Source: Candidatus Latescibacterota bacterium
Lineage (GTDB): Bacteria > Latescibacterota > UBA2968 > GCA-2709665
Assembly: GCA_965226795.1 (NCBI GenBank)
Contig: CBDDDZ010000005.1
Coordinates: 2,976,001-3,040,000, forward strand
Direction of reading: 5' to 3'
DNA: 64,000 nucleotides
In this document: positions 5,186-64,000 of the stretch, one piece after another
Layout: each line of letters opens with the position of its first letter
Numbering within the stretch: the stretch's first letter is position 1
Notes under the pieces: model-generated
What the model was told of the DNA's origin: nothing
Databases searched by the model: none
Seen by the model: the letters and a program-made list of their open reading frames with translations, nothing else
Made by a program: the position numbers and the translations under genes

Positions 5186-5784
5186 GGTGGACTCTCTGGT
5201 CTTCAAACGCATACGTTTGGCCGGGATCGATCGCCCGGCGGAATCAGGCGGAGGCAGTGTACCCGCGCACACGTTGACCGCTTCGCCAAAGCGCCTGGCG
5301 AAGATCACGAAATCGTTGAATCGAATCTCAGCCGCACGGTAATGCCGCTGGCATTCCGGATATCCGCGGCGAAGATTTGTATGGAAACAAGCTGTTCGAG
5401 TAGGACGTCGAGCGAGGAAACGACCTGGTTGCCGCCGGCGTCATTCAGGTCCGGGGCGAGGAAAAAGCTGCTTGGTTGCGTGGAGGGCGACCACAAGGCC
5501 GACGCGGGTTTTCTTTTTTCAGGGATTCTCGGCCTTCGCAGAGTGACTTTGTTGCGGCTTGTCCGGTTCTCGATTTCATATATATTATATAACGTTCAAA
5601 GAAACCACTTTCTTTATGAAATTAGTGTGGTGTTTTTATAATTACGATGACATTTTGATGAAAATTCGATATCAGGTTCAAAATGGGAAAACGCAGGGAT
5701 GCAACGGTGGGAATCCGAACCTGTAACCGGGCGCCACGTGTTGACAAGATATCGGGATGGGTACCGCTGGAAAGGAAGAGGAGA

Positions 5785-45987: not shown

Positions 45988-46043
45988 CGCGCATCAAATC
46001 TCGTAGTAATATTGCAGGTAATCAACCGAAACGGAGGCTTCTG

Positions 46044-46142
46044 GTGAAAACCGCTCTCATTCAAATCGGGAATTCACGTGGCATCCGTATCCCCAAGGCG
46101 TTCCTGGGTCAGTGCCAACTTCTTACAGTAAGCGGAAGTTGA
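46044..46142 (+). pseudogene. AbrB/MazE antitoxin N-terminal fragment
   Basis: GGAGG RBS; IQIGNSRGIRIPK then early stop. Confidence 0.65.
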
Positions 46143-46173
46143 ACAGTCACTCAAACCGGAAGGGAGAACCTAA

Positions 46174-46395
46174 ATGAACGCAGCAAGCGAATTGTCCGAA
46201 CGGCAGGCCCGGCTTGAAGGCATCATTGAGCAAATGGACCGCCGCTTTGAGTCCATTGATCGCCGCCTGGATTCCATCGACCGCCACCTTACGGGCATCG
46301 AGTCCAGCATGCGTCAGGGCTTTTTCTGGATCGTCGGCATTCAGATTACCACCCTCTTGACGTTTGGCGCGTTGATTCTCATCAAGCTCGGATAG
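46174..46395 (+). CDS. Small coiled-coil protein with C-terminal TM helix (DUF1640-like)
   Basis: IDRRLDSIDR heptads then WIVGIQITTLLTFGALIL. Confidence 0.65.
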   Translation: MNAASELSERQARLEGIIEQMDRRFESIDRRLDSIDRHLTGIESSMRQGFFWIVGIQITTLLTFGALILIKLG

Positions 46396-46481: not shown

Positions 46482-46574
46482 CCACCGAAGTGAGGGGAGA
46501 TGGGGACGGCTTTGCCGCGGTCCTTCACGACGCGGTATGGGTCGGTCCTTGTTCTGATGGAAGATTCTCGACGT
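46482..46574 (-). CRISPR. Degenerate hybrid unit: half array-2 repeat, 37-bp spacer, degenerate repeat B
   Basis: CCACCGAAGTGAGGGGAGAT (46482-46501) and TCCTTGTTCTGATGGAAGATTCTC (46546-46569). Confidence 0.7.
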
Positions 46575-46594
46575 GTCCGCCTTCGATTGTTCAT

Positions 46595-46885
46595 TTAAGC
46601 CTCTCTTGGGATGCCTGCCGCTGCTCCAAACGCCTCTTGTGCTTCCCGTATCTTGACGTCCAACAACGCCTCATGTATCTCCTCTTGTATGTCCTGCTCC
46701 GCTTGCGTAAAGACATCGGCGGACCGCCGCCGGTAAACTTCCGTTCGGAATTCTTGGTTGTCCTCCCTGATCTTGTCTTGAAAAGATTCCCCTACCGCCA
46801 CTTCCATATCCGTCGCTGTCGACGGGTTTTCTAGCACGGCATTCTTTACCGCCTGCTTCAGCATTTCTCGCCTTCGATTGCTCAT
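46595..46885 (-). CDS. Hypothetical acidic helical protein between CRISPR-like repeats
   Basis: 96-aa ORF with GGGAGG RBS; fills the interval between repeats at ~46539 and 46903. Confidence 0.65.
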   Translation of the reverse strand: MSNRRREMLKQAVKNAVLENPSTATDMEVAVGESFQDKIREDNQEFRTEVYRRRSADVFTQAEQDIQEEIHEALLDVKIREAQEAFGAAAGIPREA

Positions 46886-46902
46886 TTAAGCCCTCCCAGA
46901 TG

Positions 46903-46938
46903 GTTTAAATCCTTGTTCTGATAGAAGATCTTCACCGG
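46903..46938 (-). repeat. Solitary CRISPR-like repeat B
   Basis: GTTTAAATCCTTGTTCTGATAGAAGATCTTCACCGG. Confidence 0.85.
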
Positions 46939-46940
46939 GA

Positions 46941-47126
46941 TTAGCGGGCGCCTGGCGGCGCGTTTTTCAGCCGCTCGTTCGGCGTCGGCTTTGGCCCACA
47001 GGGCCAACTGGGAAAAGGTAGGAACCGGCAGGCCGCCTTGTAGTCGGCAGGAGCAAACGGCGTCCCGTCGGGATGCCAGCCGCGGCCGAAAATCTTTGTG
47101 TACTTTTCTTTAGGTAGGGTAGGCAT
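46941..47126 (-). pseudogene. GWHPDGTPF small protein, diverged copy with frameshift
   Basis: RGWHPDGTPFAPADYK then shifted frame GLPVPTFSQLALWAKADAERAAE; homologous to 61868-62035. Confidence 0.7.
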
Positions 47127-47129
47127 AGA

Positions 47130-47165
47130 GATTCAATCCTTGTACTGATGGAAGATTCTCGCCGG
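47130..47165 (-). repeat. Solitary CRISPR-like repeat B
   Basis: GATTCAATCCTTGTACTGATGGAAGATTCTCGCCGG. Confidence 0.85.
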
Positions 47166-47172
47166 GTTTATC

Positions 47173-47262
47173 TCAATCGAACCAATCCCAGGGCGTAAAG
47201 TATTTGATTCCAATAACCACCACAAGAATTACAGCAAGCAAGAGTATAAATCCCAAAATCAT
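47173..47262 (-). CDS. 29-aa single-TM peptide MILGFILLLAVILVVVIGIKYFTPWDWFD
   Basis: Hand translation; AGGGG upstream; fills the interval between repeats 47130 and 47288. Confidence 0.6.
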   Translation of the reverse strand: MILGFILLLAVILVVVIGIKYFTPWDWFD

Positions 47263-47287
47263 AGCGGCCCCTATATACCTGTTTTCC

Positions 47288-47323
47288 GTTTCAGCCCTTG
47301 TCCTGATGGAAAATTCCGAGCGG
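47288..47323 (-). repeat. Solitary CRISPR-like repeat B (degenerate)
   Basis: GTTTCAGCCCTTGTCCTGATGGAAAATTCCGAGCGG. Confidence 0.8.
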
Positions 47324-47348
47324 GATTGTGGTAGGGCGACGGCCGCTT

Positions 47349-47900
47349 TTATTCATCTCCTCGGATCTTGGCCAGCGCCTCGCTCGCAGCGTCTGCCATG
47401 AAATCCACAGAGTCCTTAAGATTTTCGTGTATCCATTCGAGATATCTGACCGCCCGTTGCTCTCGAAACTCACCGAGTTGCCGGATGATCGTCTCCCCCA
47501 GACCGGTGCCCAAAGGGTATCGGTCTCTGGCCATGTGCTCGAAAACGCTCACGAGCAGATTCAGCAGGTGTTGGCGAATTTCCTCCGAATCCGGTGAGGG
47601 TCTCCAGACGTAACGCGGGTTTTCCCAGGACACCCACTCGTCTGGTTGACCGGGCCGAACGCGCCGTTCCTGTTCCCAGCCGCCATGGCGCATCACCGGT
47701 CCGATGGGGATGCGATCGCGATCGGGCCGGCGATGTGGATGGTTCGCACAATAGGTGTAGAAGGGGTTCTCTATCGCGATGTCCCTGATCTCGCAATAGG
47801 GCGGTATACTCTCGTCAGCGCGCCGCAACCATTCGCGCTCGCCCCGGTTCGTTCGATTGAACCAACAGGTTCCGCAACAGTCGGATCCTCCGTTGGGCAT
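47349..47900 (-). CDS. Cys/His-rich hypothetical protein with HEAT-like C-terminus
   Basis: CCGTCWFN, YCEIR, YCANHPH; GGAGG RBS. Confidence 0.7.
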   Translation of the reverse strand: MPNGGSDCCGTCWFNRTNRGEREWLRRADESIPPYCEIRDIAIENPFYTYCANHPHRRPDRDRIPIGPVMRHGGWEQERRVRPGQPDEWVSWENPRYVWRPSPDSEEIRQHLLNLLVSVFEHMARDRYPLGTGLGETIIRQLGEFREQRAVRYLEWIHENLKDSVDFMADAASEALAKIRGDE

Positions 47901-48114
47901 CGCTCAGCCCTCCGCCCGGTTGTAACTCCGCAACCTCTCCCGCAACCGGTCATGCAGTAGCGCTCGCACCGTCACATCGTTCGGTCCAATCGAAATCCTC
48001 CGCAACGCATAACATAAAGTCCATTTGTCGCAAGTATTGCGACAACATTAAAAAAGCTATCGGCTGTTAGCGGGCAGCCGTCAGCCAGAAACAGTGAGAA
48101 AAGGAGCCGGTGTG

Positions 48115-48297
48115 AAGGTGGGGCAGACATTCCTGTCTGCCCTTATCATTGTCCTTCTGTCGCGATGCAGACAGAAGCAAGGCTTGCGCCGTCCTCTTTC
48201 CAGTGGGGAGACGGCGGCGAGTTGCGGCGTGCCCAGACACAGGATTCTGAGGTTTCGGTTTGATGTAAGTGAGCAGACAAGAATGTCTGCTCCACCC
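48115..48297. repeat. REP-like family B inverted pair
   Basis: GGTGGGGCAGACATTCCTGTCTGCCC and inverted GCAGACAAGAATGTCTGCTCCACC. Confidence 0.7.
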
Positions 48298-48480
48298 TTA
48301 CAAGCCTTTGTTCGAATTACCGCTTGAGCGCGTCAACAATCTGAGACAAAATGCCTGTACTTGCTTCCACATTCCGAAGCAGCAAGGCGCCACTGTCACC
48401 TGTGTGCCTGCGGCGAGCGATGCTGTCGGCTTTTTTCATTCCATCCTCCTCGTTGAGTAGACAGATGCAGATCCAACCGC

Positions 48481-49214
48481 TCAGAACCGTTCACGGATGG
48501 CCCAGGCCTTGATCAAGTGGTGGGCGATGGCGATGGGTCCAGGCACCGACAGAACTTTGCTCTTGCCGTCGAGGGCCAGCAGCACTTCGCGACGCTCGAA
48601 CCAGTGCGCGTCGGACATCTCCTCATTGTCTATACGAATGGCGGTGGTGACCGCTTCCGCCAGGCAGCCGATCATAAGCGAACAGGGAAACGGCCATGGC
48701 TGCGAGGAGTGGTAGCGTACGTTCTTCACCCCGATACCCGCTTCCTCCATCACTTCGCGCGCCACCACCTCCTCGATCGCTTCCCCCTGATCGACGAAAC
48801 CGGCCAGGGCGGAGTACATGCGCAGCCGCGAAAGGCGACCGTGCGACTGCCCGAGCAGGCAACGGTCGGTGGCGGGGTCCCGGCGGTACGGCAATCCTCG
48901 AAACGCCAGCCCCGACCGTCCGCAACCCGGGCGGCTGCCTCGGGGAAGGGGGACATGTCTACGGCGAAGTGCGCGACCGCGTCCATCAACCCGAGGAAAA
49001 TCGGCTTCGCTCCGGTCGCAAAGGTCCGGATCCGTTGCGTGTGCAGCCAACCAAGCCGCGGTCGCAGGCAGTCGTCGATCAACACTTCGAGATCCCGGAA
49101 GGGCAGGAACCTGCTGCCGGCGGCGGTTTCGGCGCGATGGATCCAGGCTTCGTCCCGACGTTCGCGTTCGGCACGGTCGAGAGGATTGCCGGCGAATGGA
49201 TGCTGGGCATTCAT
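48481..49214 (-). pseudogene. nudC: NAD(H) pyrophosphatase with internal deletion/frameshift
   Basis: N-terminal FAGNPLDRA; Nudix box AGFVDQGEAIEEVVAREVMEEAG and SQPWPFP in another frame; zinc-ribbon region absent. Confidence 0.75.
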
Positions 49215-49407
49215 GGATTGCGGTTACCGTAGCAGGCCGACGGGATGTAGACGGGGGAGTATCCGCACCTTAGCCGGTACTCTATCACGTGCAACTTCGG
49301 CGGCGCTGGATCACCATCCGGATGTCCAGCGCACCGCCGACCTGATGCGTCAACGTGAATGCAAACAGCCGGATATATCCCGCGTACTTTAGTCAGTTGC
49401 TGTTCCA

Positions 49408-50283
49408 TCAGGTGTCGAACAGGCTGTGCAGCCATGTATCGGCCTCTGGAATGCCGTCGGCGTTAAACACGAACTCCTGGCCGGGGCTGGCGCTCTTGAC
49501 GTAGGCCCACGGACCGTAGCGCTGCCACTGTTTTTTGCGATGATAGCTAAGCATTGGCTGCCCGTCGACGCGACAGAACCAGCGTGGCAGTCTCCAATAC
49601 GACCGGCTGCTCGCTCCGGGTGCGGTCAACATGACTCGGTCATTGGCACCTGAAAAAAGGCCGCCTCCGTTCGTTCGAGTTTCCGTTCCGCCGATGTTGA
49701 GTGTCCGGGTCGCAACGTAAACCGTGTTGTTCGGCGGCCATGATCGTCCATTGGGATGCAAAGGGTTGACGTGGGGATGGTCAGACAGCCAGGGCCGGAC
49801 TGTGCGGGCGCCGGCCGTATCGGTACCCACAGTAACGACCTCGGCCACCTGGAGCCAACCGAATAACCGGTGCACATCAGGAGCGTTCGATGCGTACTGC
49901 CATGTGCCCCCCTTCGCCGGTTCCGCGGCGCGAAACCAACCAAAGAATAGAAAGAGGTCGCCGGGCCCAACACCCTGGTTTTTCAGATGGCGTTGAGCGG
50001 TCTCGGCCTGCCCGAACGCCGCCAGCCAGCCGGGCGAACGCACAAGGGCATTGGCATTCAAATCGGGATCCAGATGACACCGGTCTCGTCCTTTCACTTC
50101 GCCGTTGGTCAAACACTCCACAATTTGGCCGAGAGACGTGTTACGCCACCGAACGTCATTGAATCGCGTCGGACTTCCGGGGTACGGAATCGGTAGGGAC
50201 AGGGCAGTGCCGTCGGGAAAAATGGGGCTTGGCTTGCCGCCATACTTCGCATCGAAACCCTTGCGGCTGAAGACAATCTTCAT
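49408..50283 (-). CDS. Nucleotide modification associated domain 3 (Nmad3)-like protein
   Basis: SRKGFD..GG.PSPIFPDG..SLPIP, HLDPDL, GDLFLFFGWF, HPH, GQEFV. Confidence 0.75.
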   Translation of the reverse strand: MKIVFSRKGFDAKYGGKPSPIFPDGTALSLPIPYPGSPTRFNDVRWRNTSLGQIVECLTNGEVKGRDRCHLDPDLNANALVRSPGWLAAFGQAETAQRHLKNQGVGPGDLFLFFGWFRAAEPAKGGTWQYASNAPDVHRLFGWLQVAEVVTVGTDTAGARTVRPWLSDHPHVNPLHPNGRSWPPNNTVYVATRTLNIGGTETRTNGGGLFSGANDRVMLTAPGASSRSYWRLPRWFCRVDGQPMLSYHRKKQWQRYGPWAYVKSASPGQEFVFNADGIPEADTWLHSLFDT

Positions 50284-50456
50284 TGGTACTCTTCCTCCAT
50301 TGGTCCGGTCAGGTTACCCAAGCTTACAGCAAAGAGAAAGAACCGGCAAGGTCAACGATAACATTCTTGCCAAGGTCCCCAGCAAGTCGTGGGGCGCAAT
50401 TCGGGCAACAGTCCACGCATCCTAAAGCGTTTCATCGATGTAAACGCTCATGACGG

Positions 50457-50492
50457 GTTTCAATCCTTGTTCTGGTGGAAGATTCCCAGCGG
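50457..50492 (-). repeat. Solitary CRISPR-like repeat B
   Basis: GTTTCAATCCTTGTTCTGGTGGAAGATTCCCAGCGG. Confidence 0.88.
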
Positions 50493-50686
50493 GTTAGGCG
50501 CAACGAATGTGACAGGAGCATGTCGGTCTGGAGGTGTCGAATTGCATAGCAACTTCTGTCCATCGGGAGTCAGAAAATCGCGTCGAGGACGAAATCTACC
50601 CACCACTGCCCACCCGGATCAGCGAGGCTGGAGCAGAGACTTGGGTCTCAAAAGCGATCCGACGGGTTGTTTGTTCGATGATACTC

Positions 50687-51750
50687 TTAACGCTCGTCCG
50701 TCCTGCGTTTAAGTTCGTCGGCAATCCAATCGGCAGCATCGTGACGATTCATGCCAGCGAAGACACATCGAACAGGGAGATTGTAACCTGTTTCTTTTCT
50801 CACATCTCGTATTCTTACACCGTTGTCATCGGACACGATTGTTTCCCAAACGACCTTCACATGGTACTCACGCTCCTGTCCGAAAACGGTTGTGCCAGAG
50901 ATGACTTGGCCGTCAACGATCCTCCCGGCCGCCAATACACCTTTTTTGTTGACATAAGCAAAGACCCGCTGGTCTTCAGCACTTCCTGACAGATTAGTTG
51001 CACCCGTCTCATAGCCGTGAATGGCAATTACCCCCTGATCAAACATCTTGCGATACGCATTTGGGGCGTAGGTTTCGTTCGTATTGAAGATCCAATCGCC
51101 CTGCCACTTTTCTGCCGAAACGTCCTCTCCTTGCGACTGAATCTTTGGCAATGGCGCGATGTCCATCAGGATTTCTGCATCATCGGAATTTGCGTGGAGC
51201 GTGAATGGCACGAAGTTTATCGGCACACCGTATTCATGAAGCCATTTGACTATCCTCAACAAACCCTCATCAGACGCCGGAGCGACGATAATAATCCGGT
51301 GGCCTTGTTGCGCTTTTGGAATGTCCTTCTGATTAAATTCAGGATCGTCGGTTAGCTCTTGAATCCTTTCTAGCAAGGGGACATATGGGCTTCCGCCATG
51401 GCGTAGGGGCCAGTATTCTCGGTCCAGTTTTCTAGATCTTCATAGCTCTTTCCGGTCATTTCAGCAGCATATTCGAGCAGTTGGCCTACCGTCGCTCTAT
51501 CGGACCAGTCCCGCTTTATTTCGACGATGACCAAACGCCCGTCAGCGTCCAACGCCAAAATGTCTCCCATGCGTTTACCGGCAACGGACTGACCAATCAC
51601 CAGAATCTTCTCGGCACCAAACAGTAGATCGGGGTTCCGCGCCATCCAGTTTTCCAGGTTCTTTTCTGTAAGATTCAACTTTGACGCGGGCCGTTCTTCA
51701 TATGATTGAACCGCGGTCTCTTCTCCGTCGCGGATTAGCTTAAATAGCAT
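50687..51750 (-). pseudogene. NucS/DUF91-like PD-(D/E)xK nuclease with C-terminal domain, split by frameshift near 51400
   Basis: EKNLENW, DILALDADGRLVIVEIKR, GQLLEYAA; continuation RIIIVA in ORF 50687..51376. Confidence 0.65.
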
Positions 51751-52078
51751 CGGTGTCCCCTCCATCGGTACGGTTCACCCTCACGCCATATGGGAAACAC
51801 ACAGTCATGCCGCGTATCCGTACGCCGCACAAAGGTTGGATCCCTGTGCGGGTGGGGAAAGACCGGCCAAGCACGGGCGCCGACGTCGTCCGGTCCGCTC
51901 TCCCGACCCAAGTGAGGTGAGATGCTTTTTCCCCGATCACTCTGCGGCGTATCCAAGTGTCGAAAAATGCGACGCGAGCTAACACACCAGCTCGTCGGCG
52001 AACGCATCTTCGATGTCCCGCGTCAACTGCAATCTTGCACACATCGGGCCTTTCACGGCGAGGATTCAAAGGTCCTGA

Positions 52079-53413
52079 TCAGTCTCTACCCGCGTTACTC
52101 TGCAGCGTCTTGTCAATCATCGTGGAGAACACCTGTTGAAACTGCTCGCAGATTTCAGATCGAGCCAGGTTTTGCAGGGGAAAACTCGGACGCCCCTTCA
52201 GACACCTGTCCAAAGTCACGTCGTCAATCCGGCACAAATCAGACCAGAGTTCTTTGCGAGCATTCTCTGTATGGAATGGGGCGACCATGTATTGGAATTG
52301 GACGACCACGCGGTCAGCCTTTATGCTGAAGGTCCACTGCAACAATTCCTTACCGTCTGCCAATGGCAATCTGTCGAGTTGGAACCAGATCTCCGGCGGA
52401 TCGGTATTGCGCGTCGGCATTCGGTTGAAATACGCGACCCTGCGGCCCGATCCTTCGAGTTCGACGTGTTTCCGGTGCGCCCACGCAATCAGTTCCTCGG
52501 CAATTCGAGCACACTCGCAGCCGGCACGGACCCCCAACTCATGCACAAATGAATCCGGATCGACAACCATGCCGCCCTTGAGTGGGGGGACTCGAAACTC
52601 GGCAATGAGAGGCGCGTGGTCGCTCCGGGTGCCCATGACGTTGTGATCGACTCGCAGCCGCGTGCACCGATGCGCGAGTTCCTCCGTGGCATACAGCCAA
52701 TCCAGCTGTGTGCCCGGGTTGCCGCCGAACGTTCGCACGTGGCGGCAGTCGCCGGCACCGCATGGACAATCCGGCATGGTGTCCGGACGATCCTCTGCGA
52801 TGGTAGCGAGATTGACGAGCCCGAGTGATTCGATGGCGCAGAACAGGGCGCGGTATCGAGGCAGTTCGAGCGTGTCAGGACGAGTTGCAGTTGTAATATT
52901 GAAGTCGCCACCCAGAATGACGCGCCTGCCGTCACCCGAGTCAAACAGCGGAATCAGGTCGGCGATAACACGGAACATCCTTGTTTGCGCATAGCCGTCA
53001 TCCATCGCGCCATACACACTCACACAGGTGATAGGGCCGACTTCAGGCACGTGGATTCTAGCAACAATCACGGAACCCGGAAGGCTTCCCAGCATGCTGA
53101 ACCTCGTGGCGCCGTATCGTGTACGTACGGCATCGATCTCCTCTGTTTCCAGGTCACAGGCGAACGCCACAACCGACGATCCCCAGGGCCGCCGGCCTGC
53201 GATCTCGCGGTATACGAAACGGTTACGGGGGATGTCAGACGGAGCAACGCTTTCCTGGAGCAGCATGACGTCAGCCTTCCTCTCCGTTTGAAGGTAACGC
53301 CATGCGTCCTTGCGCTGCTGCGAAGTCCGCTTCCAGTGATCCATGTTCCATGTGCCGATAGACAGGTTTCGCACAACTGGTGTTGAACAGGTCTTCCGGT
53401 CGCCTGCGGTCAT
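52079..53413 (-). CDS. Endonuclease/exonuclease/phosphatase (EEP) family protein with extra C-terminal domain
   Basis: TWNM, LQE, GGDFN, LDW, SDHAP. Confidence 0.85.
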   Translation of the reverse strand: MTAGDRKTCSTPVVRNLSIGTWNMDHWKRTSQQRKDAWRYLQTERKADVMLLQESVAPSDIPRNRFVYREIAGRRPWGSSVVAFACDLETEEIDAVRTRYGATRFSMLGSLPGSVIVARIHVPEVGPITCVSVYGAMDDGYAQTRMFRVIADLIPLFDSGDGRRVILGGDFNITTATRPDTLELPRYRALFCAIESLGLVNLATIAEDRPDTMPDCPCGAGDCRHVRTFGGNPGTQLDWLYATEELAHRCTRLRVDHNVMGTRSDHAPLIAEFRVPPLKGGMVVDPDSFVHELGVRAGCECARIAEELIAWAHRKHVELEGSGRRVAYFNRMPTRNTDPPEIWFQLDRLPLADGKELLQWTFSIKADRVVVQFQYMVAPFHTENARKELWSDLCRIDDVTLDRCLKGRPSFPLQNLARSEICEQFQQVFSTMIDKTLQSNAGRD

Positions 53414-53706
53414 TCAATTCCTCCACTTCGGTCGAGGCATTCTGCAATAGACGGGGCTGTCTTTCGGATCCTCACAGGCCAAATTCCGGTGAATGCATTT
53501 CGGGTTTACTTTCGCTGCCCGCGGACCTGATGTCGGTCCGAAACCGCACGTTTGCCAGGCCAGGAACCTGTGTTCTTACGAATCGCCGCGTCGAACTGAA
53601 TCGCCGTAAAGTATCCGGAGTGCAGGTGCGAAATGTACCTACCGTTTGCCAAACAAAGTGCTGTCAAACCCTCACGAGAGTGCTAAATGGTCCCCGCGGT
53701 CTGCAA

Positions 53707-53815
53707 GTTTCAATCCTCTCCCCCCACCAAAGTGAGGGGAGATTTTCAGAAACAGTTGTCGCCAATCCGTGTAATCTCTGTTTCAATCCTTGTTCTGATG
53801 GAAGATTCCCGACGG
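53707..53815 (-). CRISPR. Hybrid mini-array: array-2-type repeat, 36-bp spacer, repeat B
   Basis: GTTTCAATCCTCTCCCCCCACCAAAGTGAGGGGAGAT (53707-53743); GTTTCAATCCTTGTTCTGATGGAAGATTCCCGACGG (53780-53815). Confidence 0.85.
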
Positions 53816-53897
53816 TGTGTGGAGCGCGAGCGAGGCACTGCTGTTCTGTGGGGTGTGTCTCATGTACGGTTACGACGCGGGGACCCACTATCCTCGG

Positions 53898-54980
53898 TTA
53901 GGCCAGGTTGGCAACGCGGCGCTCGGCGGCGGCGATGTCGGCGGCGCCGTCGAGCACGGTGATCTCCAGGTGGAACTCGCGTGTGGCGCCGGGTTCCAGG
54001 TACTCCAGGGAGTCGTGCCTGCGGTTCCAGGCGCGCCCGAGGGGCGAGCAGTTGCCTGGCTCCACGCCGGTCACGTAGCCGGCGGCGGCGAAGTGCTGCC
54101 ACTGAGTGACCAGCGGCAGCTCGGCAGCCGGCATGCGCCACTGCAGGCCGTACGCCAGCCGGTCGTTGATCAACGCAACGGTCACGTTGCCGTTGGCGTC
54201 CGGCACCGGCCGGTGCACGTATACGTCGTCGCCGGCGCCCGGCTCCGGGGCACGCGCCCGCTCGTACGCTGCGGCATCGACCGGGCGGTCCTGCAGCCAC
54301 TCGGTGCTGAGTTGGCTGTTGACCAGGAACCGGGTACCCTCGTCGAGCAGGGGGAAGCCGGGATTGGTGTGGTACAGCAGCATCAACGGCGAGCGCAACC
54401 CGCCGAGGTTCTCCACTCGGTCGTGGATGCTGATGCGGCGCTCGCCCAACGTAGTGGTGATTTCGCGGCGCAGCTCGAGCGTCGTGCCAAGTGCCACCGC
54501 TTCGCGCATGGTGCCGGCGATGCGCAGGTGGTATTCGTCTCCCTGCCAGCTTCCGCCGGCGCTCACGTCGCGCGCCGGGATGGCCGACAGCCGCCCGTGC
54601 AGGCCCAGTTCCTCGCCTTCCTCCTCCGGGTCGGTTTCGGGATGGCCGACGAAGGTCAGGCCGCAACTGATCAGCAGGCCGCCGAAGAAACTGCGCATCC
54701 AGCCGTAACCGGCGGGCTCGAAGAATGCCGGTCCGACGTCGCCGGTGGCGCTGCGGAAACACAGCGACCGCCCCTGGTAGGTGGCGGCGGCGATGTCCAG
54801 CGCCCGTCCGGGCAGTACCGAGAAGCTCAGCCCGGAGGCGTTGCTCACCTCGATCAATCCGGCGCCGCGCTCGTTGCCCTCGGTCAGCTCGGCGCGGCGA
54901 ACGGCGGCGAGCTGGCTCATATCGCCGACCAACCGCAGCAGCTCCGCCTTCGTGTAGTCGCGTCCAAACAGGTGTGCCAT
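53898..54980 (-). CDS. DUF4432 / aldose-1-epimerase-like protein
   Basis: VLPGRALDI, FFGGLLISCGL, LHGRLS, DRVEN, LYHTNPGFPLL, GVEPGN. Confidence 0.85.
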   Translation of the reverse strand: MAHLFGRDYTKAELLRLVGDMSQLAAVRRAELTEGNERGAGLIEVSNASGLSFSVLPGRALDIAAATYQGRSLCFRSATGDVGPAFFEPAGYGWMRSFFGGLLISCGLTFVGHPETDPEEEGEELGLHGRLSAIPARDVSAGGSWQGDEYHLRIAGTMREAVALGTTLELRREITTTLGERRISIHDRVENLGGLRSPLMLLYHTNPGFPLLDEGTRFLVNSQLSTEWLQDRPVDAAAYERARAPEPGAGDDVYVHRPVPDANGNVTVALINDRLAYGLQWRMPAAELPLVTQWQHFAAAGYVTGVEPGNCSPLGRAWNRRHDSLEYLEPGATREFHLEITVLDGAADIAAAERRVANLA

Positions 54981-55067
54981 GCTCGCTCTCTCCTCTCGTG
55001 GACGGGGCGGCACCCGGCCAGCGGTCGTGCCAGCGGATGTCGCTGCCGATGCCGCCGGTAGGGCCGA

Positions 55068-55235
55068 TCACCCGCCCCATAATCGCCGCGCCGTTACGCC
55101 GGGTGGCTCGCCGGGGGCAACGTGAGCGCGGCCGATCTGTGCTACCGAGGTACAGCCGATGAGCGCCATGGTGCGGCTCATCTCCTCGGCCAGCAGGCTT
55201 ACCTCGTAGCCGACCCCCGCTTCACCGCCGGCGCC
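55068..55235 (-). pseudogene. 3' fragment of FMN-dependent alpha-hydroxy-acid oxidase/dehydrogenase
   Basis: GAGGEAGVGYEVSLLAEEMSRTMALIGCTSVAQI begins at the first base after repeat 55236. Confidence 0.7.
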
Positions 55236-55271
55236 GTTTCAATCCTTGTTCTGATGGAAGATTCTCACCGG
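55236..55271 (-). repeat. Solitary CRISPR-like repeat B
   Basis: GTTTCAATCCTTGTTCTGATGGAAGATTCTCACCGG. Confidence 0.92.
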
Positions 55272-55450
55272 GTTATCGCGCTCGGCGTTCGGCGGCTCGT
55301 TCGGCATCGGACTCAGCCCAAAACGCCAGCTGAGCGGGGGTGGGGACGGGCAGGCCTGCCTCGCGGTAGTCCTTAGGGGGCAAAAGGCGTCCCGTCGGGG
55401 TGCCACGACTGTGAGAAGGTGTCGGAGTGCTTGTTGGGTGTTTTTGTCAT
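55272..55450 (-). pseudogene. GWHPDGTPF small protein copy, +1 frameshift in a G run
   Basis: MTKTPNKHSDTFSQSWHPDGTPFAP-stop; G5 at 55376-55380 versus G4 in the intact copy. Confidence 0.7.
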
Positions 55451-55455
55451 ACGCA

Positions 55456-58400
55456 GTTTCAATCCTTGTTCTGATGGAAGGGTTCTGACCGGCCGCGGGG
55501 AAGGCGCTCGTTTGGCTATACCCCCAAAACTGTTTCAATCCTTGTTCTGATGGAAGTGTTTCGACCGGAAAAAATCCGAGAGCACCGGAGACAACCGGGG
55601 TTTCAGTTTCAATCCTTGTTCTGATGGAAGTGTTTCGACCGGCTGCCACCCGAGCCTACCGATCCGCCAATACCCGTAACGTTTCAATCCTTGTTCTGAT
55701 GGAAGTGTTTCAACCGGTATATCATACTGGGTCTGGAACAACAACATGGATACCTAGTTTCAATCCTTGTTCTGATGGAAGTGTTTCGACCGGCCTGATC
55801 GCCAGGACACACAAAGACGTCGAGAATCGAGTTTCAATCCTTGTTCTGATGGAAGTGTTTCGACCGGAACCACACCTGCGCGCCGTCCTTGCGGATGGTA
55901 GGGTGTTTCAATCCTTGTTCTGATGGAAGTGTTTCGACCGGAAAAACGACCAGTTGCCTAGATGCTTGGCGCTGATGCGTTTCAATCCTTGTTCTGATGG
56001 AAGTGTTTCGACCGGCCGCGGCGGCCACCGGTGGAAGATAGACCGGTACTTCGGTTTCAATCCTTGTTCTGATGGAAGTGTTTCGACCGGGATTGTGACT
56101 TTTTTGATCGCTCCTGAAGGACAATGTTTCAATCCTTGTTCTGATGGAAGTGTTTCGACCGGTCAATTACTTCATGGCAGTCACAACAAACGACTGGGGT
56201 TTCAATCCTTGTTCTGATGGAAGTGTTTCGACCGGTAACATCTGAGATTTTCTCAGTGTTCCCTCATGTTCGTGTTTCAATCCTTGTTCTGATGGAAGTG
56301 TTTCGACCGGCCAAGCAGCCAGATCATGAGGTCTCCTCTTTCAGATGGTTTCAATCCTTGTTCTGATGGAAGTGTTTCGACCGGCAGCGAGCCCACCGCG
56401 CACCACTGCACGGCGGTGGTACTGTTTCAATCCTTGTTCTGATGGAAGTGTTTCGACCGGTAATCCCCCTTGAAATGCTTCACCTGGGCCTGTAAGGTTT
56501 CAATCCTTGTTCTGATGGAAGTGTTTCGACCGGCCAACCAGTCTATTGTCGTGGGCTCGTCGGGGTCCACGTTTCAATCCTTGTTCTGATGGAAGTGTTT
56601 CGACCGGACGGTGGGCAAGCGCAAGGAAGCGCCGGAAAAGATGTTTCAATCCTTGTTCTGATGGAAGTGTTTCGACCGGTGGTGTCTACTTCGGTTAGGG
56701 TGCCGGTGGTCATCTGGTTTCAATCCTTGTTCTGATGGAAGTGTTTCGACCGGTGCACATCGGCAAGCTTCGCGGCGTTGGCCTGTGAGTTTCAATCCTT
56801 GTTCTGATGGAAGTGTTTCGACCGGCCACCAGAATAGTTGCCCGGCCTTTATCGTCTCGAGAGTTTCAATCCTTGTTCTGATGGAAGTGTTTCGACCGGC
56901 CAGTCTTTCTTGTTCGCAATTAGAACACGGGCTTTTTCGTTTCAATCCTTGTTCTGATGGAAGTGTTTCGACCGGAAAGATCCGTATTGAGTTTGGGCCG
57001 CGGTCGGAAAAGTTTCAATCCTTGTTCTGATGGAAGTGTTTCGACCGGCAAGCTGCAACTCAACTCTTGTCGCTTCGTCCAAAATGTTTCAATCCTTGTT
57101 CTGATGGAAGTGTTTCGACCGGGGTTTTCCGGGGTACAACGACTGACGTCCGGCCGGCCGGTTTCAATCCTTGTTCTGATGGAAGTGTTTCGACCGGGAT
57201 CGAATCTCGATATCTTATAGTCACCGGCCGCTTCAGTTTCAATCCTTGTTCTGATGGAAGTGTTTCGACCGGTGACGATGGAGATTTGCGTAAAGATTTA
57301 AGACATTTCAGTTTCAATCCTTGTTCTGATGGAAGTGTTTCGACCGGTGGGTTCCGGTACTTCGGATATCCGGAGAAGTTGGCTGTTTCAATCCTTGTTC
57401 TGATGGAAGTGTTTCGACCGGCGTGTGGGCCAGCATAACCACGCTTGCCCGGAGTATATGTTTCAATCCTTGTTCTGATGGAAGTGTTTCGACCGGCCTT
57501 GCCGCGCTGGTGTCTATGGTGGCGGCATTTCCATGTTTCAATCCTTGTTCTGATGGAAGTGTTTCGACCGGCGTTGCAAGGCTTTTATTGCCGGGTGTTG
57601 AACCCTCTGTTTCAATCCTTGTTCTGATGGAAGTGTTTCGACCGGCGTAGAAACTTCTTGGCCCACGCCTCATCTTCCCTGCGTTTCAATCCTTGTTCTG
57701 ATGGAAGTGTTTCGACCGGCAGATACACCTATGAACATAGACAAGTAGAGATTACAGTTTCAATCCTTGTTCTGATGGAAGTGTTTCGACCGGTATTAGC
57801 CTCTTGGGCTGCGATGAAGCTATTCTTGTTTCAATCCTTGTTCTGATGGAAGTGTTTCGACCGGGCTGCTGCAGCTATTCTTATACTATCTAGCGGGAAA
57901 AGGTTTCAATCCTTGTTCTGATGGAAGTGTTTCGACCGGTATCATGGCAGACTCACAGCGAGCGGCGAAATATTGTTTCAATCCTTGTTCTGATGGAAGT
58001 GTTTCGACCGGGAACTTTTGGAAAAAGCCGGGGGTAAGGTTGGAATTGTGTTTCAATCCTTGTTCTGATGGAAGTGTTTCGACCGGTCCGGATGGTACTG
58101 GCGGGAACCAGGTTTTGTTTGCCAGTTTCAATCCTTGTTCTGATGGAAGTGTTTCGACCGGCCCGCCGGCAGGGCGTCGTCGGTAGTGATGAGAAGCCCG
58201 TTTCAATCCTTGTTCTGATGGAAGTGTTTCAACCGGAAAATGGCTTGTGCGGCCTTTCGATATTTATATCGTGTTTCAATCCTTGTTCTGATGGAAGTGT
58301 TTCGACCGGAGGGCGGCTCGTGACGTCGATATTTATCTGGGGTGGCTGTTTCAATCCTTGTTCTGATGGAAGTGTTTCGACCGGCCTTGCCGACATTCTC

Positions 58401-61056
58401 GAATGGAGCATTGATATAGTCGTTTCAATCCTTGTTCTGATGGAAGTGTTTCGACCGGTCGCCTAAGCCGGTTTGCGTCTGCAAAAACTCATTACGGTTT
58501 CAATCCTTGTTCTGATGGAAGTGTTTCGACCGGTTAGCCTCCAGCGCCAAATACTCCTCACGAAGATCCGAGTTTCAATCCTTGTTCTGATGGAAGTGTT
58601 TCGACCGGCCGGTTGTGCTCGCGTAGCTGCGCCCGTGATGTGATGGTTTCAATCCTTGTTCTGATGGAAGTGTTTCGACCGGCCCGAAACAAAGAGGCCG
58701 TCACGTTCGCGCGGCTGGTGTTTCAATCCTTGTTCTGATGGAAGTGTTTCGACCGGAGGATGCCGTTGGCCTTTGAAGGCCACTTGGTATCCCGTTTCAA
58801 TCCTTGTTCTGATGGAAGTGTTTCGACCGGCGTGGGGTGTGCGTTTCGCTCCAACAAGCCATATCTGTTTCAATCCTTGTTCTGATGGAAGTGTTTCGAC
58901 CGGCCCCCACCTCACGCACGAGGAAGCCTAAGAAGAAATAGTTTCAATCCTTGTTCTGATGGAAGTGTTTCGACCGGCGGGCTCATGTCTGTATGGCCTG
59001 CGACGGATCAGGTCGTTTCAATCCTTGTTCTGATGGAAGTGTTTCGACCGGAAATTCCCACGCACTCGTTTCCCGGTGCTCATTTTGGTTTCAATCCTTG
59101 TTCTGATGGAAGTGTTTCGACCGGTGATCTAAAGAAATTGCAGGATCAGGTTGCGGCGAAGGAGTTTCAATCCTTGTTCTGATGGAAGTGTTTCGACCGG
59201 GTGCGAAGACAGAACCTCCCAATACCCTACTTGGTGTTTCAATCCTTGTTCTGATGGAAGTGTTTCGACCGGCGGGGAAAAAAGTTAAATGAAATTCCGT
59301 TTGTATTTATGTTTCAATCCTTGTTCTGATGGAAGTGTTTCGACCGGTCGTAACGTGACGGATGCGATATCAATCAAATTGATTAGTTTCAATCCTTGTT
59401 CTGATGGAAGTGTTTCGACCGGTGCACACGGAACGGCTGACGCTTCAGGCTGAACGGAGTTTCAATCCTTGTTCTGATGGAAGTGTTTCGACCGGCGCTG
59501 CAGACGTTCCCGGCTTCAGCGTCGTAGATGATGTTTCAATCCTTGTTCTGATGGAAGTGTTTCGACCGGCGCAAGGGCCATGCCTCGCCGCCCAATAGCG
59601 TGAAAGTTTCAATCCTTGTTCTGATGGAAGTGTTTCGACCGGTCATTGAAAAATTGCACCAAGTCGGGCGTCTGGTCGTGTTTCAATCCTTGTTCTGATG
59701 GAAGTGTTTCGACCGGTGAACACTGGCATGGCGCTTCAGCTTTACCACGAATTGTTTCAATCCTTGTTCTGATGGAAGTGTTTCGACCGGGCCGGAGCCG
59801 GGGGTTTTTTATGCCTCTAATCCCCCGGTTTCAATCCTTGTTCTGATGGAAGTGTTTCGACCGGAGAACCTTGAAATACGCATCAGCTACTGGGTATGGA
59901 AGTTTCAATCCTTGTTCTGATGGAAGTGTTTCGACCGGTCTGGGTGGCACGGGTAATCTCAGGGCGGTCTGGAAGGGGTTTCAATCCTTGTTCTGATGGA
60001 AGTGTTTCGACCGGCCGCATAGATGCCCGCCTGAAGGCTCCCGAACAATGTTTCAATCCTTGTTCTGATGGAAGTGTTTCGACCGGAAATGAAACAACAC
60101 GCAACATGGATCAGTATAATAAAAGTTTCAATCCTTGTTCTGATGGAAGTGTTTCGACCGGTTGTCTCTGTCGGCCCGTTCGTTCTTCAGGTCCTCTTTC
60201 TGTTTCAATCCTTGTTCTGATGGAAGTGTTTCGACCGGTCTGCCAAATTTCGTCTGCATGAAACTTGTCCTCCTAAGAGTTTCAATCCTTGTTCTGATGG
60301 AAGTGTTTCGACCGGGAAACAATCAAACTCACAAGGGAAGTAGACAATGACGTTTCAATCCTTGTTCTGATGGAAGTGTTTCGACCGGGGGGGTGTAAAT
60401 GGAACACTGGGAGGGCGACGAATGAGTTTCAATCCTTGTTCTGATGGAAGTGTTTCGACCGGCAACGTTCGCGCCTCCGCAAAGATCCCTACCGTACGGG
60501 TTTCAATCCTTGTTCTGATGGAAGTGTTTCGACCGGACGTTTCGGGAAGCAGGCGTTAGGACTACCTGAATAAGTTTCAATCCTTGTTCTGATGGAAGTG
60601 TTTCGACCGGTTTCGGGAACGGCAACGCCGGCAACTGTTACGTTTACGTTTCAATCCTTGTTCTGATGGAAGTGTTTCGACCGGTGGCCTGACCATGCAT
60701 TTGAAATGCTCGCCACTCGATGTTTCAATCCTTGTTCTGATGGAAGTGTTTCGACCGGTTATCATGATAGGCTTGCGCCGTTTCCTCAGCTTTTGGGTTT
60801 CAATCCTTGTTCTGATGGAAGTGTTTCGACCGGCTTCCTTTTTTTCTTACGTGATACGTTGGGGTACCGGTGTTTCAATCCTTGTTCTGATGGAAGTGTT
60901 TCGACCGGTACTTAAATCTCAAAGGTATCATCCTATCTCCCCAAAGTTTCAATCCTTGTTCTGATGGAAGTGTTTCGACCGGCACGGGTTTTGGTAGATC
61001 TTGAAGTTGTCCATATGGTGTTTCAATCCTTGTTCTGATGGAAGTGTTTCGACCGG
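55456..61056 (-). CRISPR. CRISPR array 1: 76 repeats (hand count) of 37 bp with ~35-40 bp spacers
   Basis: Repeat GTTTCAATCCTTGTTCTGATGGAAGTGTTTCGACCGG; ends ATTGAAAC on minus strand; degenerate repeat at 55456 marks the trailer; class 1 (type III/I-B-like) style. Confidence 0.99.
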
Positions 61057-61634
61057 CCGAGGTTCTCCACTCGGTCGTGGATGCTGATGCGGCGCTCGCC
61101 CAGCGTAGTGGTGATTTCGCGGCGTAGCTCGAGGGTGGTGCCAAGTGCCACCGCCTCGCGCATGGTGCCGGCGATGCGCAGGCGGTATTGGTCTCCCTGC
61201 CAGCTTCCGCCGGCGCTCACGTCGCGCGCCGGGATGGCGGACAGTCGCCCGTGCAGGCCCAGTTCCTCGCCTTCCTCCTCCGGATCGGTCTCGGGATGGC
61301 CGACGAAGGTCAGGCCGCAACTGATCAGCAGGCCGCCGAAGAAACTGCGCATCCAGCCGTAACCGGCAGGCTCGAAGAATGCCGGGCCGACGTCGCCGGT
61401 GGCGCTGCGGAAACACAGCGACCGCCCCTGGTAGGTGGCGGCAGCGATGTCGAGCGCCCGTCCGGGCAGCACCGAGAAGCTCAGTCCGGAGGCGTTGCTT
61501 ACCTCGATCAATCCGGCGCCGCGCTCGTTGCCCTCGGTCAGCTCCGCACGGCGAACGGCGGCGAGCTGGCTCATGTCGCCGACCAACCGCAGCAGCTCCG
61601 CCTTCGTGTAGTCGCGTCCAAACAGATGCGCCAT
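61057..61634 (-). pseudogene. Second DUF4432 copy truncated at the terminal repeat of array 1
   Basis: Near-identical to 54403-54980; ends at DRVENLG and runs into the repeat. Confidence 0.9.
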
Positions 61635-61830
61635 GCTCGCTCTCTCCTCTCGTGGACGGGGCGGCACCCGCCCCATTGTCGCCGCGCCGTTACGCCGGGT
61701 GGCTCGCCGGGGCAACGTGAGCGCGGCCGATCTGTGCTACCGAGGTACAGCCGATGAGCGCCATGGTGCGGCTTATCTCCTCGGCCAGCAGGCTTACCTC
61801 GTAGCCGACCCCCGCTTCACCGCCGGCGCC

Positions 61831-61866
61831 GTTTCAATCCTTGTTCTGATGGAAGATTCTCACCGG
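61831..61866 (-). repeat. Solitary CRISPR-like repeat B
   Basis: Identical to 55236-55271. Confidence 0.92.
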
Positions 61867-61867
61867 G

Positions 61868-62035
61868 TTATCGCGTTCGGCGTTCGGCGGCCTGTTCGGC
61901 ATCGGACTCAGCCCAAAACGCCAGCTGAGCGGGGGTGGGGACGGGCAGGCCTGCCTCGCGGTAGTCCTTAGGGGCAAAAGGCGTCCCGTCGGGGTGCCAA
62001 CCTCGGCAGAAAGTATCTGAGTGCTTGTTGGGCAT
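61868..62035 (-). CDS. 55-aa protein MPNKHSDTFCRGWHPDGTPFAPKDYREAGLPVPTPAQLAFWAESDAEQAAERRTR
   Basis: Hand translation; below ORF-track cutoff; fills the interval between array 2 and repeat B; two homologues in the window. Confidence 0.7.
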   Translation of the reverse strand: MPNKHSDTFCRGWHPDGTPFAPKDYREAGLPVPTPAQLAFWAESDAEQAAERRTR

Positions 62036-62054
62036 ACACATAATATTCGAAATG

Positions 62055-63477
62055 GTTTCAATCCGCTCCCCCCACCGAAGTGAGGGGAGATCTACCAGTC
62101 AGAGACGCTTTACCAGATGTCATGGGCGTTTCAATCCGCTCCCCCCACCGAAGTGAGGGGAGATCTACCACGTCGACATCAGATCGAAAGCTGTTTTCCT
62201 GTTTCAATCCGCTCCCCCCACCGGAGTGAGGGGAGATCGACGTCTCGGAATCGACGCTGTCGACCTCATACGTGTTTCAATCCGCTCCCCCCACCGGAGT
62301 GAGGGGAGATGTACCCAGTCCCACGCTGTCGTCAGCCACCCTATGTTTCAATCCGCTCCCCCCACCGGAGTGAGGGGAGATGTTGTTTTTGCAGGGCCAG
62401 GACACCCTTGTTATCATTGTTTCAATCCGCTCCCCCCACCGGAGTGAGGGGAGATTCAGCGCACCCCACGACCCGGTAAAATTTCTTACGAGTTTCAATC
62501 CGCTCCCCCCACCGGAGTGAGGGGAGATCACAGGATGATGCCGCCAGGCGCTTTGTAAGCGACGTTTCAATCCGCTCCCCCCACCGGAGTGAGGGGAGAT
62601 CCTTCGGGGCCGCCGATTTGCCGGCTGCGAGTGTCGGGTTTCAATCCGCTCCCCCCACCGGAGTGAGGGGAGATACAGGAAGGGCCCGGGCAAATTGGCA
62701 GGTGGGCATTGTTTCAATCCGCTCCCCCCACCGGAGTGAGGGGAGATCCCCTGGGCGCACTGGCAACAGCGGCGGTGGCTATAACGTTTCAATCCGCTCC
62801 CCCCACCGGAGTGAGGGGAGATTTGCCGAACAACCAGGGTTCCCCCGATCCCCAACAAGTTTCAATCCGCTCCCCCCACCGGAGTGAGGGGAGATCTATA
62901 CGCAGCATTTTCACGTCAGGATGTGCTTTTGTGTTTCAATCCGCTCCCCCCACCGGAGTGAGGGGAGATGGGCTCCCGTACCGTTTCCCGGCCCGCCGTT
63001 TGGGTTTCAATCCGCTCCCCCCACCGGAGTGATGGGAGATGCAGATTTCGTTACGGGGGCCGGTATCTCTTTCAGGGTTTCAATCCGCTCCCCCCACCGG
63101 AGTGAGGGGAGATCAACATATATATAGCTGTTTGCGCCGGGAACACCGCGTTTCAATCCGCTCCCCCCACCGGAGTGAGGGGAGATCTGCCGGGTCCATG
63201 TTGGGTCGTTTGTCGCTTCCAGCAAGTTTCAATCCGCTCCCCCCACCGGAGTGAGGGGAGATCAGGGACGCCGCGCCTACAAGCGCCACGCCATCAGTTT
63301 CAATCCGCTCCCCCCACCGGAGTGAGGGGAGATGTTTCGCTACCCCCCAACCCAAGCTCACCCTCTATGGTTTCAATCCGCTCCCCCCACCGGAGTGAGG
63401 GGAGATAAGTGTCTACAAACGTATTGCGGCGGAGTTCTCTGTTTCAATCCGCTCCCCCCACCGGAGTGAGGGGAGAT
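62055..63477 (-). CRISPR. CRISPR array 2: 20 repeats of 37 bp, probably type I-C
   Basis: Repeat GTTTCAATCCGCTCCCCCCACCGGAGTGAGGGGAGAT with strong hairpin; two variant repeats at the left (trailer) end. Confidence 0.98.
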
Positions 63478-63738: not shown

Positions 63739-64000
63739 CCTGAAAAATTCACAAAAAAGGTAGTTTCCTTACCCAAGTCATTGTATTATATTGTGGTTAC
63801 GCAAATAACCATAACACAATGAAACAGGAGGAAACTACCGTGGGAGTTCAAGATACACATCACAGGGTGTCTTTCGCAAGTCTTTCTGGTAAGCCGGTAG
63901 AAGCCACCTTCGACGGAGGCATCCTGACCAGCGACAGCGGGGTGATGCTGCTTCGTGAGGTGGAGGCCAGAACCGGGATTTTGCATAGGATGGTTGCGGC
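63739..64000 (+). mobile_element. IS1380-family element: left end and transposase N-terminus (partial)
   Basis: Terminus CCTGAAAAATTCA; AGGAGG RBS, ORF from 63819/63840 with FDGGILTSDSGVMLLREVE. Confidence 0.8.

Follow-up and report, generated by a model that had tools for sequence, protein, structure and literature searches.

Single CRISPR repeats border genes and precede a small-protein family in a variable island of a Candidatus Latescibacterota genome

Layout of the locus

We analysed a stretch of 64,000 nt (the window) from a Candidatus Latescibacterota bacterium (assembly GCA_965226795.1, contig CBDDDZ010000005.1; G000:C5:2976001-3040000 in our numbering, where G000 is the window's own genome, 5.41 Mb and 95.9% complete). 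In it, single CRISPR repeats stand between genes beside two regular arrays. Window features lie on the minus strand unless another strand is given. Array 2 (62055-63477) consisted of 20 type I-C repeats with a 10-bp hairpin and an 11-nt tail, and its leader was at the right; the tail agrees with the 11-nt Cas5d tag described in the accessible part of PMC5965381. The type I-C operon (cas5c, cas8c, cas7, cas3, cas4, cas1, cas2) was located just right of the window, beyond a 454-aa transposase-like open reading frame (ORF) that starts at 63819-64000 on the plus strand and that we take to be IS1380-like. Since cas2 was shortened to 78 aa, compared with 102 aa in the relative G008, and the transposase-like ORF (window 63819-64000 and L001 820-2668) separated it from the array-2 leader, spacer acquisition may be impaired. 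Array 1 (55456-61056) comprised 76 type I-B-like repeats with spacers of 34-40 nt. It began within a copy of a DUF4432 gene and had no leader of the kind seen in four relatives. Its cognate Cas6b was missing from the genome, in which three Cas6 queries found no Cas6/RAMP protein.

An earlier note on this stretch (the original prediction) had described eight solitary repeats, here called repeat B, and all eight were found again, at 46539-46575, 46903-46939, 47130-47166, 47288-47324, 50457-50493, 53780-53816, 55236-55272, and 61831-61867, each oriented like both arrays. A profile of repeat B scored these sites at 40-63 bits and nothing else in the 5.41-Mb genome above 14 bits, so that repeat B was not scattered genome-wide. 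Three extra repeats resembling those of array 2, solitary or incomplete, were identified: a 5' half at 46482-46501, a degenerate copy at 51887-51923, and a copy at 53707-53743. The last two divide the interval 50457-53780 into what are really three intervals. The half repeat ends a mini-array of two, whose other member is the repeat B at 46539 with its degenerate 3' handle, and the copy at 53707 forms a mixed mini-array (53707-53816) with a 36-nt spacer and the repeat B at 53780. Only these two pairs (46482-46575 and 53707-53816) had repeats 20-60 nt apart, and none of the ORF cassettes did.

The units between the repeats were 121-3132 nt long, unlike the regular 34-40 nt kept by array 1, and their GC content ranged from 0.40 to 0.70, with 0.60 in the flank. 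Three of the five short cassettes held paralogs of a family of about 58 residues that was unannotated and that we named after its WHPDG motif. The copy at 46941-47126 (61-aa ORF) had its ATG 3 nt past the repeat and a frameshift after the core motif, and the same break was present in G013. The copy at 55273-55450 had its ATG 5 nt past the last repeat of array 1, and its frame was shifted by a single C that contig L019 does not have. The copy at 61868-62041, which follows the final repeat of array 2, was intact (57 aa), with its stop codon abutting the next repeat. The other short cassettes carried a 96-aa ORF (46595-46885) that fills a 327-nt unit, with only five close relatives and no Pfam or PHROG match, and a hydrophobic 29-aa ORF (47173-47262) in a 121-nt, 40% GC unit, seen elsewhere only in G013. 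The claim that one ORF fills each short cassette held for four of the five, where the ORF starts 3-25 nt after one repeat and ends 0-19 nt before the next; the fifth departed from it.

The long intervals were not single-ORF cassettes, since they contained fragments of NudC and FMN-dependent dehydrogenase genes and a dispersed repeat. The claim that every gene between the repeats is encoded on the minus strand was right for the annotated genes. From left to right, these intervals carried a Cys-rich 183-aa hypothetical protein (47349-47900), which occurred in eight islands at varied positions with a repeat within about 60 nt downstream in six; a NudC-like NUDIX gene in two fragments (48481-49214); an Nmad3 nucleotide-modification-associated protein (49408-50283; PF18754, 6e-72); a NucS-like/PDC-S11 candidate defence nuclease (50687-51765), in two frames in this assembly; and an exonuclease/endonuclease/phosphatase-family protein (52079-53413) that G002, G008, and G009 also have, with different neighbours. 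A 1419-nt, 70% GC unit ran from repeat to repeat, with a DUF4432/aldose-1-epimerase-family gene (53898-54980) and the last 40 codons of an FMN-dependent dehydrogenase (55116-55235; PF01070, 9e-08), the latter beginning mid-gene exactly at the repeat end. The dispersed element at 47950-48330 matched about 40 places of its own genome by BLAST and was covered at very high depth by public runs. A second one, of about 160 nt and with 30 matches, breaks the 29-aa cassette in G013.

A second, 3'-truncated copy of the dehydrogenase-DUF4432 unit (61057-61830) was joined directly to array 1 at its first repeat, and the repeat B at 61831 was identical to the copy at 55236. Overall, 61052-62032 duplicated 54398-55438 at 90% identity. 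Misassembly was excluded, as a 90% duplicate is too diverged, contig L019 independently has the arrangement of 53707-55492, and contigs of run X3 span most of the island in the same order. Joining of two related islands would be the simplest history, followed by a deletion that brought the second DUF4432 copy up against array 1 and took out the type I-B leader and cas genes. L019 itself is a 2.7-kb contig close to the window arrangement; it is labelled Tectimicrobiota and is probably mis-binned.

The island in related genomes

The repeat core was present in 21 of the 41 genomes searched and in 12 of the 14 other members of the genus. Named records with the exact repeat were labelled as Candidatus Latescibacterota or Gemmatimonadota metagenome-assembled genomes, and several public runs holding part of the window stretch were sponge metagenomes. 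Within each of 23 fetched regions the repeats shared a single orientation (1055 of 1055 hits), and 79 of the 92 called ORFs of at least 200 aa in 15 islands were co-oriented. In relatives, too, it was the leader-distal side that held the solitary repeats. The Cas module at this position was type I-C in G000, G008, G011, G013, and G014, type I-B with Cas6b in G003, G006, G010, and G015, and a myxobacterial type I-B in G001 and G012; cas1 was missing from G002, G007, and G009. Four repeat types and spacer remnants were mixed through the islands. Repeat B is itself a type I-B repeat, since its variants form regular arrays beside Cas6b, Cas7, Cas5, Cas3, Cas4, Cas1, and Cas2 in G003, G006, G010, and G015. 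As RNA, the 37-nt repeat folded at -3.3 kcal/mol (z +1.0), without the long hairpin of the I-C repeat. Cas6b was found in only 3 of the 15 genus genomes. The proposal that cassettes are processed into separate RNAs was therefore unsupported for G000, which has only the type I-C operon and no detectable Cas6.

Where islands had cargo in common, its order and neighbours differed. The DUF4432 unit was bounded by repeats in G000, G008, G013, and L019, each time with different neighbours, and its donor was not found within the phylum or by names. A PADLOC scan of the cargo matched 10 of 24 ORFs (PDC-S11, ZacABC, HEC-05, GajB-like, and Argonaute-associated), of which the window holds only the split PDC-S11. 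Comparison of the islands bore out one expectation of the original prediction, namely co-oriented, repeat-bounded, ORF-filled units with content and order that vary between strains. The design of the locus is real and lineage-wide.

Regular arrays in these genomes had spacers of 34-53 nt, and transposons were the sole long inserts seen in their interior. The spacer comparison gave no convincing self-match of at least 17 nt. An origin through a reverse transcriptase-Cas1 fusion (RT-Cas1) was rejected, because no reverse transcriptase maps to the locus and the long Cas1 ORFs found elsewhere (G001, G010, and G015) resemble Cas4-Cas1 fusions in their start and size.

Repeats also stood at the starts of other genes. 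The GTG start of a PEMT-family gene (L035 2611-3172; also in G002, G006, G009, and G014) was the first base past the last repeat of the island, a repeat of type B in some genomes and of type C in others. Single copies of repeat B occurred on other contigs at L027 9675 (G006), L064 9018 (G003), and L066 10278 (G001); two of these stand 1 nt before an ATG, one of the genes being a TylF-family methyltransferase. A cas5 gene in G013 (L040 12805-13640) and a cas4-like ORF in G034 (G034:C1:1475047) each start on the first base past a degenerate solitary I-C repeat. This placement makes it possible that cas mRNA is autoregulated through cleavage of the repeat.

A small-protein family behind repeat B

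The WHPDG family was detected in 14 of the 41 genomes, comprising the window's own, 12 of the 14 other genus members (13 of 15 genus genomes in all), and G016, and in 15 of 168 genomes of the phylum, the extra one being a weak match. Matches to the family were found in 39 database proteins, several of which end in translated repeat, so that those genes too are followed by a repeat. Differences by codon position were 0.32, 0.31, and 0.56, and the median ratio of nonsynonymous to synonymous divergence (dN/dS) was 0.33 in the 121 pairs whose dS was below saturation; the 22 sequences compared include a duplicate start and a frameshifted copy. With third positions differing most and this low ratio, the family is a real protein under purifying selection. 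A non-coding RNA was ruled out by the codon pattern, and Rfam gave no match. Derivation from decayed spacers and repeats (182 nt would equal three spacers plus two repeats) was also rejected, as the ORF held no internal repeat signal (mean -21.0, versus -21.9 for codon shuffles).

The original prediction overlooked what is the main feature of the island, that is, multi-copy small genes with the start codon at a fixed distance from a Shine-Dalgarno (SD)-like motif in the repeat. A profile search independent of the repeats collected 35 WHPDG copies from the fetched regions. A repeat stood directly before 28 of them, downstream of 28, on both sides of 22, and on neither side of one. Among the 28 repeat-led copies, 27 followed repeat B with the ATG at +2 to +5, and one followed an I-C repeat at +13; 21 were intact. 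Of the seven copies not scored as repeat-led, two began 3 nt past a remnant with 22 of 37 positions matched (background 4/2000) and one more followed a fourth repeat type; the distance to the ATG was 3-5 nt in these three. As a control, any ATG occurred within the first 14 nt of 194 of 933 array spacers; the WHPDG copies are kin and not independent of one another. A genome carried up to six diverged copies, deeply split subfamilies coexisted in one genome, and the Cas6b strain G010 had three intact copies in tandem. Intact copies were also present in G002, G007, and G009, which lack both cas1 and Cas6b.

The AAGGA inside repeat B was the sole SD-like motif available to the repeat-led genes, because just 2-5 nt separate repeat and ATG. 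Predicted anti-SD pairing averaged -6.3 kcal/mol for 22 peptide-leading repeats versus -5.2 kcal/mol for 61 other solitary repeats, and the variants before WHPDG genes included more purine-rich forms. Repeat positions 13-37 were 0.84 identical over 190 pairs versus 0.39 at four-fold sites, with synonymous sites near saturation, which indicates that the repeats are kept by selection or refreshed by conversion. On this sequence evidence, repeat B probably supplies the ribosome-binding site of the WHPDG family.

Scanned family members had no Pfam, PADLOC, or Atlas match and no convincing PHROG match, and no member was found in viral contigs, phages, or plasmids. The predicted structure had a model pLDDT (predicted local distance difference test) of 86; no PDB representative matched it above Z 3.0 and no viral structure with E below 1.7, from which a new fold does not follow. 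Many long distant matches were dropped, with only about 15 positions matched, and of six metagenome loci with matches only L099 and L100 look like true members. In G001, a PDC-S11 nuclease (L023 1992-3257) had a WHPDG domain fused at its C-terminus, and others lay inside two 450-aa proteins (P0057 and P0063). The protein is most likely an accessory of the defence island and not a lethal toxin.

Breakpoints at repeats

Homology blocks were compared among the 15 islands against a null in which the repeats were placed randomly in non-coding DNA (500 draws). For blocks of at least 150 nt, 51 of 294 distinct ends fell at repeats versus 16 +/- 4 expected and a maximum of 30 in the 500 draws, an enrichment of about threefold, and for blocks of at least 400 nt it was 33 of 212 versus 12 expected. 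Of 235 ends, 28 lay within a repeat in each of the two genomes compared, and for nearly all of them the offset agreed. A direct case was found in a contig of run X8, which joins 46553 to 47145 and so loses 46554-47144, two cassettes, from repeat to repeat; the junction shares 17 letters and its shorter side is 247 letters long. Only the chromosome with the deletion was seen, not an excised circle. A joint of 50480 to 53779, one side of which spans just 25 letters, was left out of the count. In the protein P0031 the reading frame passes from a WHPDG gene across repeat B and on into the spacer at 53744-53779, which implies that its strain is without the DUF4432 unit. Moreover, the window copy at 55273 was a chimera, with a 5' part like L019 and a 3' part like the copy at 61868, which points to recombination between cassettes.

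The integron integrase model (IntI, TIGR02249) gave no hit over its cut-off in the 15 genus genomes (best 112 versus 265 bits) and none at the locus, in a search made without a positive control, and no tyrosine recombinase was found among 130 scanned proteins of the island regions.

Two further observations concern the surroundings of the island. At its edge (46040-46395), the plus strand carries a truncated ORF, presumably AbrB/MazE-like, and a 73-aa coiled-coil/membrane ORF. Large repetitive ORFs at the far left of the window (1-5308) contain tandem units, some of 306 nt and others of about 393 nt.

Explanations of the island

The Cas modules at this locus differ from relative to relative and have left four co-oriented repeat types; genes and gene fragments stand between single repeats, and loss from repeat to repeat has occurred. 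We think it probable, with some reserve, that the locus is a hypervariable, partly defensive island on the leader-distal remains of CRISPR arrays, whose single repeats were kept for two new jobs. In the first, the AAGGA of the repeat would act as the ribosome-binding site of the WHPDG family and of a few other genes that start directly past a repeat. In the second, the repeats would provide the homology through which ordinary recombination or slippage deletes, tandemly duplicates, or exchanges units, and no dedicated integrase would be involved. The cassettes would be transcribed from the array transcript or from island promoters. New DNA would enter between two repeats rarely, most likely through spacer-anchored recombination or as an over-long Cas1-Cas2 insert. 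According to the accessible part of PMC5965381, Cas6 makes its cut at a distance of 8 nt from the end of the repeat. In Cas6b strains such a cut would part the SD motif from the ATG and lower translation, a switch that G000 does not have.

Several observations weigh against this explanation. Most block ends (243 of 294, 83%) lay away from repeats, and a contig of run X19 had two deletions that did not end in repeats and removed repeats instead. The proposal that cassettes are shuffled by repeat recombination was thus supported by the loss in X8 and the enrichment of block ends, and limited by the majority of ends elsewhere. Much of the cargo was metabolic or fragmentary. Seven of the 28 repeat-led WHPDG copies were broken, including two of the three in the window, and the distant member L100 was on a contig free of repeats. 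The median anti-SD pairing was -5.8 kcal/mol for either class of repeat and the copies share a common descent, which makes the pairing test a weak one. The GGA belongs to the conserved repeat core, and its conservation therefore need not reflect translation. Scans for promoters and terminators gave no more than chance. RNA runs X17 and X19 had contigs covering pieces of the island; without a silent control these were not counted as transcription.

A more ambitious alternative, which we regard as doubtful, is that the CRISPR arrays of this lineage also serve as a cassette system for protein-coding "spacers". It would combine entry between repeats, the ribosome-binding site of the repeat, shuffling, and switch-off by Cas6b, and the protein would be made when CRISPR RNA processing fails through anti-CRISPR attack or cas loss, as a back-up defence or regulator.

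An unlikely reading restricts this idea to the WHPDG genes, as a module that senses CRISPR processing. Cleavage by Cas6b would keep the protein off, and loss of processing or its inhibition by an anti-CRISPR would turn it on, for back-up defence or for addiction to type I-B. It is in keeping with the place where Cas6b should cut, 8 nt short of the repeat's end and between AAGG and ATG in all 27 copies led by repeat B; with the conserved short stem arms and 3' handle of the peptide-leading repeats (3-9% mismatches); and with the three intact tandem copies of the Cas6b strain G010. However, Cas6b occurred in 3 of the 15 genus genomes and the WHPDG gene in 13, and solitary repeats had 2.87 mismatches in Cas6b strains and 2.08 in I-C strains, so that they were not better preserved where Cas6b is present, which is why we treat translation gated by Cas6 as a rival. 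The intact copies in G002, G007, and G009, without cas1 and Cas6b, also indicate that the unprocessed protein is not lethal, unless it is silent.

Passive decay appeared quite unlikely. Here ordinary insertions and deletions would have broken old arrays, leaving repeats as functionless relics, and slippage would have amplified one small gene that happened to lie behind a repeat. Intermixed repeat types and spacer remnants, the many fragments, transposons, and broken copies, and the breakpoints outside repeats are all as decay would leave them, and gene conversion with the arrays could explain the conservation of the repeats. However, decay does not explain the purifying selection on the ORF, the spacing of 2-5 nt that stays constant across deeply split subfamilies, the purine-rich variants before the ATG, or the repeat cores that are far better kept than neighbouring synonymous sites.

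Least likely is active gene capture, a CRISPR equivalent of the integron in which Cas1-Cas2 or another site-specific activity inserts gene-sized giant spacers: the 70% GC DUF4432 unit that starts mid-gene exactly at a repeat end and stops at the next repeat, a 1613-nt insert with a mid-ORF start between two identical I-C repeats in G011, and the several units filled by one ORF would fit it, but the flanking repeats are mostly unlike each other, contrary to fresh integrase products, regular arrays keep 34-53-nt spacers with only transposons as long interior inserts, the cassettes are at the trailer end instead of the leader end, cas2 here is cut to 78 of 102 aa, and the locus has no integron integrase or RT-Cas1.

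Comparison with known systems

In their known roles, CRISPR repeats are the sites where short non-coding guides are processed and integrated. In the island they appear to border whole genes, to start translation, and to serve as breakpoints. Integrons consist of IntI, attI, and attC, with co-oriented, often promoterless single-ORF cassettes, a short recurrent site, variable order, and defence-type cargo. The island resembles them in its co-oriented units, recurrent short site, variable content and order, and defence-type cargo. It differs in that its site is a 37-nt CRISPR repeat without a stable fold as RNA, unlike an attC hairpin, that no IntI exceeded the cut-off in 15 genomes, that many units are gene fragments, and that most breakpoints are off-site. 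The term "integron-like" in the original prediction therefore fits the layout only, as no integron integrase was found and most rearrangements end outside repeats.

Racrs are RNA anti-CRISPRs from solitary repeat units, reportedly virus-encoded non-coding RNAs that mimic array repeats. The island shares with them solitary repeats that resemble array repeats; its own repeats are instead chromosomal, at a conserved locus, and their core had no exact match in viral contigs. Varble et al. are said to have described recombination between spacer and protospacer, and prophage integration into CRISPR arrays. This would offer foreign DNA a route into an array exactly at the repeat boundary; it is known for phage DNA and array disruption, and not for stable, shuffled gene cassettes. 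Like defence islands in general, the locus has variable cargo with PADLOC matches at a conserved chromosomal position, and unlike them it is punctuated by CRISPR repeats, all in one direction, at the boundaries of genes and before start codons.

In the accessible part of Shmakov et al. (10.1101/2023.03.03.530964), mini-arrays and stand-alone repeats are found in the vicinity of cas loci, often those of type I-B, and carry 20-60-nt non-coding spacers that guide promoter repression. The two mini-arrays of the window, with 36-37-nt spacers, are alike in form; the island intervals, of 0.1-3 kb, differ from what that part describes in being protein-coding and in having repeats at gene starts and ends. 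In CreTA/CrePA, as far as the available portion of Shu et al. (10.1101/2024.01.05.574328) goes, Cascade and a guide RNA repress transcription. There, too, a small gene lies by a repeat-like sequence and its expression could report Cas status, whereas control here would act on translation through repeat cleavage, and the gene occurs in several copies and stays intact where the cognate Cas protein is missing. If Cas6b cleavage does control translation, the island would provide post-transcriptional sensing of CRISPR health, unlike the promoter repression of the CreTA type. No description of repeat-bounded gene cassettes was found in the searched literature, which leaves out most subscription papers and the Shmakov supplements, where such repeats may be listed.

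Together, the comparisons suggest that the island works like an integrase-free cassette array and is not an integron, with cassettes that are not arrays, mini-arrays, or Racrs. It yields an unannotated small-protein family, and suggests that the irregular trailer ends of CRISPR loci, usually dropped by array finders, are worth mining.

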